64,000 bases of DNA, from the NCBI RefSeq assembly GCF_003790525.1, contig NZ_CP033635.1; one strand, 5' to 3'. This document shows, piece by piece, positions 39,007 through 44,522 of the stretch. How positions within the stretch are numbered: position 1 is the first letter of the stretch; each line of letters opens with the position of its first letter. Below the pieces are notes generated by a model that made no database searches, had not been told where the DNA came from, and saw only the letters and a list, made by a program, of their open reading frames with translations. This stretch comes from Escherichia coli (GTDB lineage: Bacteria; Pseudomonadota; Gammaproteobacteria; Enterobacterales; Enterobacteriaceae). The translations under genes were made by a program, and so were the position numbers.

Positions 39007-40503
39007 ATGCAGGGCACAAAAATTCGACTTTTAGCGGGCGGTTTGCTGATGATGGCCACTGCTGGCTATGTGCAGGCAGATGCGCTCCAGCCTGATCCAG
39101 CATGGCAACAGGGGACGCTTTCCAACGGTTTACAGTGGCAAGTGCTGACTACACCCCAGCGTCCCAGCGATCGTGTTGAAATTCGCCTGCTGGTTAATAC
39201 CGGTTCGCTCGCCGAAAGTACACAACAGAGCGGTTACAGTCACGCCATCCCTCGTATTGCGCTAACGCAAAGCGGTGGCCTTGACGCAGCGCAGGCGCGT
39301 TCATTGTGGCAGCAGGGGATCGACCCTAAACGCCCGATGCCGCCGGTAATTGTCTCTTATGACACCACGCTGTTTAACCTGAGTTTGCCCAATAACCGTA
39401 ACGACTTGCTGAAAGAAGCGCTCTCTTATCTGGCAAATGCCACTGGCAAACTGACTATCACGCCAGAAACCATCAACCACGCGCTGCAAAGTCAGGACAT
39501 GGTGGCAACCTGGCCTGCCGATACTAAAGAGGGCTGGTGGCGTTATCGTCTGAAAGGATCAACCTTGTTAGGTCACGATCCTGCCGATCCGCTGAAACAA
39601 CCCGTTGAAGCGGAAAAGATTAAAGATTTCTATCAGAAATGGTACACCCCGGATGCAATGACGCTGCTGGTGGTGGGAAACGTGGATGCGCGCTCGGTCG
39701 TCGACCAAATCAATAAAACGTTTGGCGAACTGAAAGGCAAACGTGAAACACCGGCTCCGGTGCCGACGCTTTCTCCGCTGCGTGCGGAAGCGGTGAGTAT
39801 TATGACCGACGCGGTGCGTCAGGACCGGTTATCTATCATGTGGGATACGCCGTGGCAGCCGATTCGTGAATCAGCCGCACTGCTGCGCTACTGGCGTGCG
39901 GACCTGGCCCGTGAGGCGCTGTTCTGGCACGTTCAGCAAGCGTTAAGCGCCAGTAACAACAAAGAAATCGGTCTTGGATTTGATTGCCGTGTGCTGTATC
40001 TGCGTGCGCAGTGTGCCATCAACATCGAATCACCAAACGACAAGCTGAACAGCAACCTTAATCTGGTGGCGCGTGAACTGGCAAAGGTTCGCGATAAAGG
40101 TCTGCCGGAAGAAGAGTTCAATGCGTTAGTGGCGCAAAAGAAACTGGAGCTGCAGAAACTGTTTGCCGCCTATGCGCGAGCTGATACCGATATTCTGATG
40201 GGGCAGCGGATGCGTTCGTTGCAAAATCAGGTCGTCGATATCGCGCCGGAGCAATATCAGAAACTGCGTCAGGATTTCCTTAACAGCCTGACGGTGGAGA
40301 TGTTAAATCAGGATCTGCGTCAGCAGTTGTCGAATGATATGGCGTTAATACTGCTGCAGCCGAAAGGCGAGCCGGAATTTAACATGAAAGCGTTGCAGGC
40401 GGCCTGGGATCAAATCATGGCCCCATCGACTGCGGCTGCCGCCACATCTGTCGCCACGGATGACGTACATCCTGAAGTGACGGATATTCCACCCGCACAG
40501 TGA
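39007..40503 (+). CDS. yhjJ: M16-family peptidase-like periplasmic protein YhjJ
   Basis: 498-aa ORF with signal peptide; recognised as YhjJ. Confidence 0.9.
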   Translation: MQGTKIRLLAGGLLMMATAGYVQADALQPDPAWQQGTLSNGLQWQVLTTPQRPSDRVEIRLLVNTGSLAESTQQSGYSHAIPRIALTQSGGLDAAQARSLWQQGIDPKRPMPPVIVSYDTTLFNLSLPNNRNDLLKEALSYLANATGKLTITPETINHALQSQDMVATWPADTKEGWWRYRLKGSTLLGHDPADPLKQPVEAEKIKDFYQKWYTPDAMTLLVVGNVDARSVVDQINKTFGELKGKRETPAPVPTLSPLRAEAVSIMTDAVRQDRLSIMWDTPWQPIRESAALLRYWRADLAREALFWHVQQALSASNNKEIGLGFDCRVLYLRAQCAINIESPNDKLNSNLNLVARELAKVRDKGLPEEEFNALVAQKKLELQKLFAAYARADTDILMGQRMRSLQNQVVDIAPEQYQKLRQDFLNSLTVEMLNQDLRQQLSNDMALILLQPKGEPEFNMKALQAAWDQIMAPSTAAAATSVATDDVHPEVTDIPPAQ

Positions 40504-40510
40504 TAAATAA

Positions 40511-40539
40511 CCCGGCAGCGTTTCTTCTGCGCTGCCGGG
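40511..40539 (+). terminator. hairpin downstream of yhjJ (no T-run; possible terminator)
   Basis: CCCGGCAGCG / CGCTGCCGGG inverted repeat with 9-nt loop. Confidence 0.35.
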
Positions 40540-40685
40540 ATTAACGGTAATTAATAAGTTACCGTGATATACCCGCAGAGATTTTTCCCGGCACGGCGGT
40601 AGCGTGCAGATAATTACTGACTGCTGTGGTTTATAGAAAAGGAAGTAACCACACTTTGTGAACGTAACGTGCTAAAGGAATATGA

Positions 40686-41216
40686 ATGCGCTACAAAGTC
40701 ACACTGTTCTTGCTGACTATGATTCTCTGCTTAACAGGGTTCTATTCCTGCAACAAGAACTTCCTCTTACTCTGGGATGCCAATAATATGTATGTCAGCA
40801 CAAGAAATAATATCGATAAAGACAAGGTAAAAATAGAATTCGGTATCAGCGTCAACACGATCAACCGAGAGACGGATGCCGAATTATTTACTGACAGAGC
40901 GAAGTATAGAATTATCTTCGATGGTAACCTAAAAAACAGGATGATAAATGAGTACGGCGAAAATGATTTTTTAATTACCTACGATGACCGCTGCTATTTA
41001 TCATTTCGTCAATTTAAAACCAATCGTCGTCATCAACATGACTATTATTTTGACTTCTTTAACAACAATGGGAATGTCTTTGTCACAGTCGAAATCAAAG
41101 GCGAGAACCCACTTAAATTTACGCGTAGTTTAAATGATATGCGTCAGCAGTTTTCACCAACTCGTGAGGATAGCCCTTCTCACTCCTGCAAGGTTATTTC
41201 TTCAGATCCTTCTTAA
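40686..41216 (+). CDS. hypothetical protein, AT-rich gene, N-terminal signal/anchor-like hydrophobic segment
   Basis: 176-aa ORF with AAAGGA RBS 5 nt upstream of ATG; markedly AT-rich by eye; N-terminus MRYKVTLFLLTMILCLTGFYSC; no K-12 counterpart recalled. Confidence 0.6.
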   Translation: MRYKVTLFLLTMILCLTGFYSCNKNFLLLWDANNMYVSTRNNIDKDKVKIEFGISVNTINRETDAELFTDRAKYRIIFDGNLKNRMINEYGENDFLITYDDRCYLSFRQFKTNRRHQHDYYFDFFNNNGNVFVTVEIKGENPLKFTRSLNDMRQQFSPTREDSPSHSCKVISSDPS

Positions 41217-43236
41217 ACACTGGATCTGGACAATCACGACCAAAATGCGCAGACCAGTCAAAAACTTTACCGTTTTTCACGTAGCGTTGATAAATTAATG
41301 CACCGGTTTCTGTATCACGATATCTGACCCAACTTGCAGCATGGCATAACACGGCAGCCCAAGCCTGGGTTTTAGGGTGAAGTAAATCGGCAGATTGTCC
41401 GGCCCATTCCGCAGCCTGCCAGCGGTAATGCAAAAAATGATCATCAGCGGTGGGGATTGCATGGCGAATACGTTGTTTTTCTTTACGACTTATCCACTGA
41501 TCGTTATTTCTGTATTCAAAGAGTGCTGAATACTGCCCACTGGAAATAGCATTATCGGGATACATTTCATAAGCCACCAATTCGATACCACTGAAACGTA
41601 AAAGCCGCGCAGCTTCGTATTGCGCCTGGGCGCGTTGTTTATCAGGGATATTTTTATTTTTTGCTATCGCCATTAAATCAGCCAGTTTTTGTGCGGCCTG
41701 GCGATGATCGGGAATATCAAACCAATTGATGGCCTGCTGATACTGACCATTACGTATTAATCGTCTACCTAATAGTGCACGTAATTTAACATCCGTGGGA
41801 ATGATATCTGGCGAAATATAATAACCGTAACTGCTCTTGTTTAAATCTATAGGTTTTAAAGGATGCTGAGGTGCTGGTACGTTTTTTTCAACAAACGCGT
41901 GTAACTCTGACAAGGTCAAAACGTTTTCTGCCACCCAGGCTAAATCAGCCCAATAGAGATCTTTGGCCTGGTAAAATAATGCGGTGGCCTGAAGATAATC
42001 ATCGCGTTTTAATGCCACAATCGCCTGTTCACTGGCAATACGGCAAGACGGGATGGTAACTTTATCGGCATGATAATAAGGGCTTTCCGGGTCCATACTT
42101 CCCCAGACTTCATCGGTAGAGAACAGCGGGGCTGCGCGAGCATAGTGACGCGTTGCCAGTGGAATATCTCCGGCTCGTAATGCCATTTTTGCTTTTAACC
42201 ATTCGCTTAATCCACTTTCTGGCGCATCCTGCAACAGCGTTTGTGCTAACGAATAATTTCCTGCCCGATACGCCAGTGCTGCCAGGCGATCGCTATAACT
42301 AAATCCTTTAACTCTGTGTTGACTTAGCAACTTAATTAAACGGTCGCGATGCGTTGGACAGGTATAATCTACAAGGTCCTTAGTACAGGCTTCGCTAACA
42401 TACCCCCAGTCATGACGAATAAAGAGCTCTGCGATTACCAGTTGCTGAACCAGAGAATCATTAATAACCGACTCCAGCAGTGGTAAATTTTTCTCCCTGG
42501 TTATATACAGCGAAATCATCCGTAGCGACGCTTTCCCGGAGGGCGAACCCTGGGCCGCTTGCCGGGCATACATTTTTACTGCCGCAGCGACATCACCTTT
42601 TTTCAGATAATAATGCCCAATCTGACCGAGACTGGCGAGAGAGAGCAATTCAGGATCGGCTGCTCCATTACGCACTTCTTCAATGATTTGCTGATAACGC
42701 TGTATGGCCTGCTCAGCAAGTTCCTGATTAAAGCCGCCTTTATTGATTATAAGATCGAGATTGTCGTCAGTGGCATCAAATCCCCCCCTTGCCAGACTAT
42801 ATAGCGTAGCAAGACGCCATTCCCCTTGCTCTGTTTTCGGCAAGGCTAATAATTGCTGAAAGTAAGGGCTATCGTATTTTCCCTGATGAAAATCCTTAGC
42901 TCCTGAATAATAAAGCCTCTGCGCCTTAGATAATGGCTTCTGCAATTTTTGCGTGATTTCCAGTATCCGATTTTGCGCAGGAGGCTCAGCATCATCATCT
43001 GTATTTGCCTGCGTTGCCTCCGCGGGCGTATCTTCATGCCATATCGGTAAATCAGGATCGCGTTTAGCCAACTGTTGTACTTCAAAGACAAAACTGCCAT
43101 TTGGCATTTCCAGCAGTGCGCTATTGCGGTCAGTTAACAGATGGTTAGGAATAAATGGTCCACAGGCATTAACGTTGGCGCTAATTAGTGAGAGAAATAC
43201 AATAACGGAAAGCCGCGATATTTTAGGGGATAACAT
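41194..43236 (-). CDS. hypothetical secreted protein, predicted signal peptide and helical-repeat (TPR/Sel1-like?) character
   Basis: 680-aa ORF; strong RBS (AGGAG, 6-nt spacing); N-terminus MLSPKISRLSVIVFLSLISANVNA; low-complexity acidic linker then Tyr/Ala/Leu-rich segments; start overlaps the upstream ORF by 14 nt. Confidence 0.75.
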   Translation of the reverse strand: MLSPKISRLSVIVFLSLISANVNACGPFIPNHLLTDRNSALLEMPNGSFVFEVQQLAKRDPDLPIWHEDTPAEATQANTDDDAEPPAQNRILEITQKLQKPLSKAQRLYYSGAKDFHQGKYDSPYFQQLLALPKTEQGEWRLATLYSLARGGFDATDDNLDLIINKGGFNQELAEQAIQRYQQIIEEVRNGAADPELLSLASLGQIGHYYLKKGDVAAAVKMYARQAAQGSPSGKASLRMISLYITREKNLPLLESVINDSLVQQLVIAELFIRHDWGYVSEACTKDLVDYTCPTHRDRLIKLLSQHRVKGFSYSDRLAALAYRAGNYSLAQTLLQDAPESGLSEWLKAKMALRAGDIPLATRHYARAAPLFSTDEVWGSMDPESPYYHADKVTIPSCRIASEQAIVALKRDDYLQATALFYQAKDLYWADLAWVAENVLTLSELHAFVEKNVPAPQHPLKPIDLNKSSYGYYISPDIIPTDVKLRALLGRRLIRNGQYQQAINWFDIPDHRQAAQKLADLMAIAKNKNIPDKQRAQAQYEAARLLRFSGIELVAYEMYPDNAISSGQYSALFEYRNNDQWISRKEKQRIRHAIPTADDHFLHYRWQAAEWAGQSADLLHPKTQAWAAVLCHAASWVRYRDTETGALIYQRYVKNGKVFDWSAHFGRDCPDPVFKKDLKK

Positions 43237-44428
43237 TAAACTCTCCTTGAATTTTTTGATTGCAGCGCGCCCATCCCAGCGGACTGCTTTCTCCGGCGCG
43301 TAGTTGCCTGGCGCTTCCTCTCACAAAATTCAGGCTGGATGGTCCAGGTTGCACCTGATAGTGGCTGGCTCCATCAGCGAATAGACAATCTGCATTGGAC
43401 ATAATTATTTGTTTTGGCAATGGCGCATCAATTACGCCGCTGTTTTTAAAGGCCAGATCAAAAAGTTGCTTGTCTGCATGTTGAGTAATTATTAACGACC
43501 AGCGCGGAGTCAGCGGTTGATGTTGAATCACAGCTTCAAGCGTTGTCAGGGACCAGGCGCGGCGATCGCCTGCTAATGGTAGCCGAAACCATACCAACCC
43601 CTGTAATCCATGCGGTGGTTGCTGTTCTAAATATTGAATGAAATCGGCAATTGTTTGCGGCGACACACTTAATTCACGCATCTCTTCGGCAACGTATAAC
43701 GGAGCTTCACTCTCGACGCGATTATCACTGGTGAGCGCAGAACCGTAAGCGGGCAATGCGATGAAAAAAGGATGCGTGGTTTGTCTGGCATATTGCTTTA
43801 CCCAACGCTGCGCCAGACTGGCATCTAACAGGCCTTTTTCGGGCGATAGCACGTTATGTACCTGCAAAACCGAAGTGTCCGCAATCCGCAATAATCGGGC
43901 GAGATGTGGTGATTCAAGCCAGGTAGGCAGGACGGTAATGCTAAGTTTTATATTTGTAGGAAGTGCCTGATGTAACGTACTAAGTAGGGTCAGATAGTCC
44001 GGCAATTTTGCTGTTGGCGCGTCATAATCAATTTCTACCCCTACCAGCGTAATACCAGCTTTTTGCCACTCACGTAGGGTTTGTTGAATATGCTGGATAA
44101 TTTGCTGGTTATTAAGCCGTGTAAGCTGACCTTCGAGTCGCGCGACCAGCCAGACCGGGCGACCATCTTGCTTAATAAGTGAAGTATTAACCGTAAAGTG
44201 TCGGATGCCTTCTTGCGGGTGAAATTGCATCCCGAGTACGCGAAGCGTAGAGAAAAGCGGGCGGCTTCGTTTGAGTGCCTCGTTATGTTCTGCCGTCCAG
44301 ACGCGTTGCCAGATATAGACTTGCTGATCAAAGCGAAGCGGTTGTGAAGGGGTAAATAAAATATGCAGCCCGTAGCCCAGGCAGATCAGAAGAAGTGAAG
44401 CTGCAAAAATCCTTTTGCAAGATGGCAT
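43223..44428 (-). CDS. hypothetical protein with N-terminal signal peptide or membrane anchor
   Basis: 401-aa ORF; N-terminus MPSCKRIFAASLLLICLGYGLHILF; no family assigned from sequence alone; lies 94 bp downstream of kdgK on the same strand. Confidence 0.7.
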   Translation of the reverse strand: MPSCKRIFAASLLLICLGYGLHILFTPSQPLRFDQQVYIWQRVWTAEHNEALKRSRPLFSTLRVLGMQFHPQEGIRHFTVNTSLIKQDGRPVWLVARLEGQLTRLNNQQIIQHIQQTLREWQKAGITLVGVEIDYDAPTAKLPDYLTLLSTLHQALPTNIKLSITVLPTWLESPHLARLLRIADTSVLQVHNVLSPEKGLLDASLAQRWVKQYARQTTHPFFIALPAYGSALTSDNRVESEAPLYVAEEMRELSVSPQTIADFIQYLEQQPPHGLQGLVWFRLPLAGDRRAWSLTTLEAVIQHQPLTPRWSLIITQHADKQLFDLAFKNSGVIDAPLPKQIIMSNADCLFADGASHYQVQPGPSSLNFVRGSARQLRAGESSPLGWARCNQKIQGEFNVIP

Positions 44429-44522
44429 ATTGTTACGGAATTACGATTATCAACAAGCTGATAGTATACCGACGAAACTATTAACGGAGAACGAATATCT
44501 ACCCGTTCTCCGTCAAAAACCA

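Follow-up and report, generated by a model that had tools for sequence, protein, structure and literature searches.

A Translationally Coupled DUF3142 Barrel Protein and Its Helical Partner in Escherichia coli, a Candidate Two-Subunit Envelope Glycosidase

The 64,000-nucleotide stretch of Escherichia coli DNA analyzed here (contig NZ_CP033635.1, assembly GCF_003790525.1; hereafter the window) carries two overlapping genes on its minus strand. Gene 1 (43223-44428) encodes a 401-amino-acid (aa) protein of the DUF3142 family, which in its predicted structure combines an N-terminal membrane helix, a barrel resembling glycoside hydrolase family 18 (GH18), and a C-terminal β-sandwich. Gene 2 (41194-43236) encodes a 680-aa exported, all-α partner reminiscent of tetratricopeptide repeat (TPR) proteins and assigned to no Pfam or NCBIfam family. 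The pair is real, strongly conserved, uncharacterized, and made of recognizable parts. The reading we favor, to which we give slightly better than an even chance, is a two-subunit envelope glycosidase, in which a tethered, GH18-like DUF3142 enzyme and its coupled TPR-like partner would act on a glycan of the N-acetylglucosamine (GlcNAc) type.

Conservation of the Coupled Pair

The two open reading frames (ORFs; 44428 to 43223 and 43236 to 41194) lie exactly where a first-pass annotation, made from the sequence alone, had placed them, and overlap by 14 nt (43223-43236). The coupling junction (43223-43247, minus strand) is also as described there: the Shine–Dalgarno (SD) sequence AGGAG (43247-43243) sits inside gene 1 and is followed, after a 6-nt spacer, by the gene 2 ATG (43236-43234) and then by the gene 1 TAA (43225-43223). 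Related loci were gathered by exact-protein look-ups and one scan of species-representative genomes, which identified a relative in 342 of ~100,000 bacterial and archaeal genomes, with 80 loci fetched. In 84 of the 85 loci, which represent 13 genus-level groups, an in-frame ATG, GTG, or TTG precedes the end of the stop codon of the upstream gene by exactly 14 nt, and in these same loci the conserved start is preceded by CAAGGAG or CCAGGAGG, the SD being encoded within the conserved C-terminal Gln-Gly codons of the enzyme. The loci belong to Escherichia, Pseudocitrobacter, Klebsiella, Phytobacter, Serratia, Enterobacillus, Budvicia, Iodobacter, Pseudomonas, and two metagenome-assembled genomes (MAGs); the overlap and its embedded SD are kept across gamma- and betaproteobacteria and in the two MAGs, which are distant and unclassified. 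This conservation is well beyond chance, and the pair occurs widely in Serratia and Pseudomonas. The sole exception to the 14-nt overlap is Enterobacteriaceae bacterium B14, with a 48-nt gap; its locus (DF158886.1, L036, 8296-12331) has a DUF3142 gene followed by two tandem copies of the partner.

Searched with a profile of the 680-aa family, all loci with enough sequence have the partner directly downstream of DUF3142, except that of Hafnia paralvei. Clustering of all flanking ORFs gave enzyme and partner as the only two genes common to at least three genera; the other clusters that reached three or more genera were antisense shadow ORFs within the pair, a generic ABC ATPase, and one 207-aa ORF. 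Since only the pair is common to all contexts, the cassette is a self-contained two-gene unit that landed in unrelated places, and its sites outside Escherichia differ from the kdgK-yhjJ interval that it occupies in E. coli. The translational coupling and functional linkage proposed in the first-pass annotation are thus well supported, both by the retained junction and by the exclusive sharing of the two genes.

Two side observations concern the evolution of the pair. Divergence seems to be faster in the partner than in the enzyme (P0004/P0126): in one Escherichia lineage, apparently on one 19-kb contig, the enzyme is 86% and the partner 62% identical, with corresponding values of 53% and 45% in Serratia and 47% and 35% in Pseudomonas. 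A metagenomic protein of 1,176 aa (P0290) combines a DUF3142 sequence that breaks off at profile position 366 with a complete partner. It was considered as a Rosetta-stone fusion and rejected, as the internal signal peptide and the ACGPDFP motif of the partner are kept and the enzyme C-terminus is truncated; judged by these features, it is probably a frameshift or gene-call fusion.

A DUF3142 Protein with a GH18-Like Barrel

Gene 1 matches Pfam DUF3142 (PF11340) with an E-value of 1.1e-75, residues 88-285 aligning to model positions 1-201/202, and its RefSeq annotation is likewise DUF3142. The family is large: clustering at 50% identity gives 2,138 clusters or more, of which at least 818 are reached at E ≤ 1e-30. 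A search for literature naming DUF3142 returned a halotolerance co-occurrence table as the sole mention, and no paper was found by PDB codes, accessions, or Pfam/InterPro identifiers. An AlphaFold model of gene 1 (predicted local distance difference test, pLDDT, 89.7) has three parts, all encoded on the minus strand. A hydrophobic helix at residues 4-24 (44357-44419), which accounts for the hydrophobic N-terminus pointed out in the first-pass annotation, would serve as a signal anchor or an uncleaved signal. It is followed by an eight-stranded β/α barrel at about residues 34-300 (43529-44329), whose strands assigned by DSSP (34-39, 61-70, 92-99, 128-136, 161-166, 185-189, 221-225, and 275-280) alternate with helices, and by a C-terminal sandwich of eight β-strands at residues 310-400 (43229-43501). 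C348 and C389 are invariant in the enzyme family; we infer that they form a disulfide, which would place the protein in the periplasm.

Across 33 aligned family members, whose identity to the E. coli protein ranges from 43% to 90%, invariant residues fall, in the model, at the C-terminal end of each of the eight barrel strands. These are Y38, W40, and R42 (β1); Q68 (β2); R97 (β3); E132, D134, and D136 (β4); T165 and W170 (β5); Q189 and H191 (β6); Y228 (β7); and W280 and R282 (β8). As modeled, they make up the canonical active-site face of a TIM barrel, at or near which lie four invariant arginines. Strand β4 reads L-V-G-V-E132-I-D134-Y-D136-A-P and ends, in the model, at D136; the invariant E132-I-D134-Y-D136 at its end (44021-44035, minus strand) is the candidate catalytic motif.

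The modeled barrel is of the GH18 (β/α)8 type and its best structural matches are chitinases, in line with the first-pass suggestion of an enzyme-like first product, which both the model and the structure search place among TIM barrels related to carbohydrate hydrolases. The GH18 signature D-x-x-D-x-D-x-E, with its Glu acid on β4, is not reproduced: the acidic triad is present, with the Glu replaced or shifted. Whereas GH18 relatives such as 3FND, 4Q6T, and the spore cortex-lytic SleL (4S3J) have D-x-D-x-E, gene 1 has E-x-D-x-D, and its acid would be an Asp or differently placed compared to GH18. With a register taken from the model strand ends, without superposition, D136 would occupy the GH18 acid position. 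An hhalign comparison of the family with the catalytic domain of E. coli ChiA, run in global mode only, gave no usable alignment. Gene 1 is therefore best described as outside GH18 by its amino acid sequence, while its model suggests that it plausibly works like a GH18 enzyme.

The altered β4 strand raises the question of whether the barrel cuts glycans or, as in chitinase-like lectins, binds them, in which case the pair would be a structural component of the envelope. If the D-x-D pairs are aligned directly (LDFDIE in ChiA versus IDYDAP in DUF3142), the GH18 Glu is absent, and further structural neighbors of gene 1 include narbonin, XIP-I, and the tamarind chitinase-like lectin. However, E132, D134, D136, Q189, H191, Y228, W280, and R282 are invariant on the catalytic face, a conservation found within a family as broad as the cluster count above indicates, and the TfeC subfamily, with an identical I-D-x-D-A strand, is described as an active chitinase. 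We consider a lectin-like role very improbable.

TfeC is the relative that informs this comparison most directly. A PDB profile search with gene 1 matched 8y6t (TfeC) with an E-value of 3.8e-11, and D134, D136, T165, W170, and Q189, together with the I-D-x-D-A strand, are common to gene 1 and the TfeC subfamily. The C-terminal half of TfeC was taken from the PDB alignments; a query with an 83-aa fragment returned partial proteins only. According to two reviews (PMC13008689, PMC13162877) that cite Zhu et al. (2026, Nat Microbiol), TfeC from Yersinia pseudotuberculosis is an antifungal chitinase delivered by T6SS4, a type VI secretion system (T6SS). It is the only characterized DUF3142 member, and an atypical one. 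TfeC (PDB 8Y6T/9VTV) shares ~20% identity with gene 1, comprises 262 aa in a single domain, and is T6SS-delivered, whereas gene 1 is 401 aa long, carries an N-terminal anchor and an extra β-sandwich, is coupled to a TPR-like partner, and has no T6SS context. An effector of the TfeC type lacks a Sec signal and is linked to a T6SS; gene 1 has the helix at residues 4-24 and neighbors kdgK and yhjJ, and conserved T6SS genes were absent near the pair in the 13 genus-level contexts. One locus is curious in this respect: in Pseudocitrobacter cyperus (L012, 2087-11182), the cassette lies in an island of small hypothetical genes with Tli4_C- and Tli3-type genes, which are T6SS lipase immunity-like, and the characterized homologue TfeC is itself a T6SS effector.

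Such parallels could suggest a wall hydrolase harmful to its own cell and coupled to its inhibitor, akin to a toxin with its immunity protein or an autolysin with its inhibitor, where the TPR protein neutralizes the enzyme in the periplasm of the producer. An enzyme gene followed by a tightly overlapped second gene is the typical effector-immunity layout, TfeC is an effector, and the Pseudocitrobacter pair sits among Tli3- and Tli4-like immunity genes. Yet the enzyme has its own Sec-type anchor or lipobox, which argues against a delivered effector; T6SS, contact-dependent inhibition (CDI), and Rhs genes are not conserved nearby; 680 aa is very large for an immunity protein; and Hafnia tolerates the enzyme without the partner. 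Of the alternatives weighed here, we regard this one as the least probable.

A nutritional role is another alternative. Vibrio periplasmic GH18 chitodextrinases cut imported chitin oligosaccharides, and the DUF3142 enzyme could do the same, with the TPR protein as an accessory binding protein. The only characterized DUF3142 protein is a chitinase, as are the best structural matches, and the chitinolytic genera Serratia and Iodobacter are among the hosts. Against this stands the lack of any transporter, regulator, or GlcNAc-catabolic gene conserved beside the pair, and a chitodextrinase would leave unexplained both the tether of the enzyme and its strictly coupled, membrane-anchored partner of 650-770 aa. 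Moreover, many hosts, such as E. coli and the fluorescens-group Pseudomonas, are not known as typical chitin users. We hold the chitodextrinase explanation, and likewise imported chitin oligosaccharides as the substrate, to be unlikely.

The Helical Partner and a Tethered Two-Subunit Model

Gene 2 begins with a predicted signal peptide (residues 1-25, 43162-43236, minus strand), whose hydrophobic region (h-region) ends V-N-A and is followed by the invariant Cys25, consistent with the cleavable signal read in the first-pass annotation. Export signals were judged by the -3/-1 rule, the PROSITE lipobox pattern, and hydrophobic helices. Right after the h-region, A24, C25, and G26 are invariant and P27 nearly so in 29 partner sequences, all 29 of which obey the signal peptidase I (SPase I) -3/-1 rule. 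Ten of them pass the PROSITE PS51257 lipobox [LVI][ASTVI][GAS]C, position -3 is never Leu, and the E. coli V-N-A-C fails. The mature partner thus probably begins, to judge from these residues, with an invariant Cys-Gly-Pro, for which atypical lipidation, a disulfide to a partner, and docking are candidate roles.

The model of gene 2 is entirely α-helical to residue 664 and folds as a solenoid of helical hairpins. The acidic linker TDDDAEPPAQN recognized earlier maps to residues 79-89, in a length-variable, low-confidence loop (pLDDT < 50 for residues 71-85). The TPR/Sel1-like repeats also proposed in the first-pass annotation hold at the level of the predicted fold, a TPR-like helical solenoid, but not at that of sequence profiles: the best Pfam TPR models gave E-values of 0.6-10, none significant, PDB profile matches were at E 0.02 or worse, and the NCBIfam PrsT model scored 14.6 bits against a cut-off of 312. 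The family has its own conserved motifs (GAxDP...SLG, YWxDxAxVAERVLTxDEL, GxExxGxExxPD, FHYR, and CGPxFP). Local matches of ~100-110 residues link it to TPR regulators or scaffolds of cell-wall enzymes, namely ActH-LytH, LpoP, and CpoB/YbgF, and reflect the TPR fold in general; by sequence the partner is unrelated to these proteins, and compared with them it is far larger and has motifs of its own. NlpI is another TPR regulator or scaffold of cell-wall enzymes.

The analogy with the hydrolase and TPR scaffold of exopolysaccharide export and modification systems (PelA/PelB, PgaB/PgaA, BcsZ/BcsC), drawn in the first-pass annotation from the pairing of an enzyme-like protein with a putative TPR protein, did not survive. 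Unlike those systems, the pair lacks a porin β-barrel, a deacetylase domain, and a synthase operon. The model of the partner is built of α-helices alone, without an outer-membrane β-barrel, and in the 13 genus-level contexts the genes conserved beside the pair include neither a glycosyltransferase nor a synthase. The proximity to the bcs genes is due to a rare insertion in Escherichia (see below). A role in exopolysaccharide export is judged improbable, as is a secreted exopolysaccharide as the substrate.

Membrane anchoring differs between lineages. Enterobacterales and Iodobacter combine an enzyme that has an N-terminal transmembrane (TM) helix with an unanchored partner; a PROSITE-type lipobox is absent in the enterobacterial enzymes. 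In Pseudomonas, most enzymes carry a lipobox (LSGC, LAGC, or LQGC) with Asp, Glu, or Gln at +2, and the partner ends in a TM helix with an Arg/Lys-rich tail, as do more distant aligned partners. At least one subunit bears a TM segment in each lineage, and these two lineage-level observations suggest that a complex of the two acts at the periplasmic face of the inner membrane. Covarying Cys pairs in both proteins, C631 and C669 in the partner family, suggest disulfides, in line with a periplasmic setting.

Taken together, these features can be rationalized into a two-subunit model, in which complex formation, catalytic activity, topology, and substrate are all inferred. Gene 1 would be a membrane-tethered, periplasm-facing glycosidase with a barrel like that of GH18 chitinases and an E-x-D-x-D active-site strand, and gene 2 a Sec-exported, all-helical TPR-like protein whose synthesis would be set to that of the enzyme by translational coupling, through the 14-nt overlap and the embedded SD. 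The two proteins would assemble into a complex on the periplasmic side of the inner membrane, where the TPR protein would act as a targeting or regulatory subunit, either activator or inhibitor, and the barrel would cleave a β-linked N-acetylhexosamine glycan. Among possible substrates, the envelope glycan of the cell itself, i.e., peptidoglycan-type strands near the membrane, is ranked first because catabolic, transporter, and synthase neighbors are missing, the membrane tether is short, and four arginines are invariant; even so, this assignment is tentative. Imported chitin oligosaccharides rank second and an exopolysaccharide third. A further proposal, which we find doubtful, is that the pair is an unrecognized glycosidase whose TPR subunit controls the enzyme and whose Cys-Gly-Pro-x-Phe-Pro N-terminus is itself functional, as a site of atypical lipidation, a redox or covalent switch, or a plug of the active site.

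Several points weigh against the two-subunit glycosidase. A Glyco_hydro_18 profile match to gene 1 is absent even at an independent E-value of up to 10, and gene 1 does not have the catalytic Glu of GH18 as such. Hafnia paralvei (L028, 7872-9137) has a DUF3142 gene without a partner within 8 kb downstream; in a Rhodanobacteraceae MAG (L009, 8001-10172), the partner is preceded by a response regulator and has no adjacent DUF3142 gene. These enzyme-only and partner-only cases indicate that pairing is not obligatory. Lastly, the proposed substrate is derived from fold analogy and from the absence of catabolic and synthase neighbors.

The Escherichia coli Insert and the Significance of the Pair

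Over this region, the sequence matches the chromosome of E. coli SMS-3-5 (NC_010498.1) with 100% identity, and the local gene order is bcsC, hmsP/pdeK, dctA, yhjJ, three extra genes, kdgK, pdeH, and yhjG. BLAST against K-12 gives homology as far as the end of yhjJ (40501) and again from the kdgK stop (44523), leaving a strain-specific insert of ~4,021 bp (40502-44522, unstranded) in place of the 97-bp K-12 kdgK-yhjJ spacer. In a composition profile, the guanine-cytosine (GC) content of the insert is 37-49%, compared to 51-57% for the flanks. The two genes were found in 30 of 5,426 complete E. coli genomes, chromosomal and in single copy in all 30; E. marmotae and one further Escherichia species have the pair at the identical kdgK-yhjJ site. 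A plasmid or phage origin was considered and rejected: E. coli plasmid copies numbered zero, and the plasmid matches to the cassette were only megaplasmids or chromids of other genera. In E. coli, the two-gene cassette is thus rare, horizontally acquired, and self-contained, and its proximity to bcs results from where the ~4 kb foreign segment inserted, between kdgK and yhjJ. In E. coli E22 (NZ_CM143899.1, hit H42), an IS5-like ISKpn26 element lies within the cassette, and that copy is probably disrupted.

The third gene of the insert is a convergent ORF of 176 aa (40686-41216, plus strand) for a putative lipoprotein with a GFYSC lipobox; existing annotations call it hypothetical or a lipoprotein. 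It shares 23 nt with the 3′ end of gene 2, is the lowest-GC part of the insert (37-38%), and stands outside the conserved pair: it occurs only in Escherichia loci (E. coli, E. marmotae, E. fergusonii, and E. albertii), and cassettes of other genera are without it. Scans of all three insert proteins against NCBIfam, PADLOC, and PHROGs gave nothing meaningful. At its left edge, directly past the stop of yhjJ, the insert has a GC-rich hairpin (CCCGGCAGCG...CGCTGCCGGG; 40507-40545, plus strand) with a sequence unlike that of K-12 at this position; this hairpin is likely a yhjJ terminator that the insertion introduced or remade.

On the other side, a 94-bp gap separates gene 1 from the end of the kdgK stop (44523). 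The first-pass annotation had noted here a hairpin and a possible -10 element, and raised the possibility of a separate promoter or of read-through from kdgK. The gap, the hairpin, and TATACT (44468-44463) are all present; a promoter was rejected as unsupported, as a simple sigma-70 consensus scan of the gap found zero -35/-10 pairs. The hairpin (44481-44516, minus strand; 16-bp stem, 4-nt loop) has an RNA folding energy of -27.6 kcal/mol (z -3.05), with none of 200 shuffles equally stable, and was not scored as an intrinsic terminator, a T-tract being absent after the stem. With no -35/-10 pair and no T-run after the hairpin, neither a promoter nor a terminator is demonstrated in the gap, and the pair may be transcribed separately or together with kdgK.

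The tempting link of the pair to the neighboring cellulose (bcs) locus is removed as unsupported. The common form of DUF3142, a ~400-aa tethered periplasmic enzyme with a ~700-aa partner that has no Pfam family, is uncharacterized. Defining its substrate would annotate hundreds of genomes, including those of Serratia, Pseudomonas, Klebsiella, and rare E. coli lineages, and the pair could reveal a new regulated cell-envelope hydrolase. If the Cys-Gly-Pro-x-Phe-Pro N-terminus of the partner were indeed functional, the pair would exemplify a new way of controlling the cleavage of peptidoglycan or another amino-sugar glycan, present in at least 342 of the ~100,000 species representatives.

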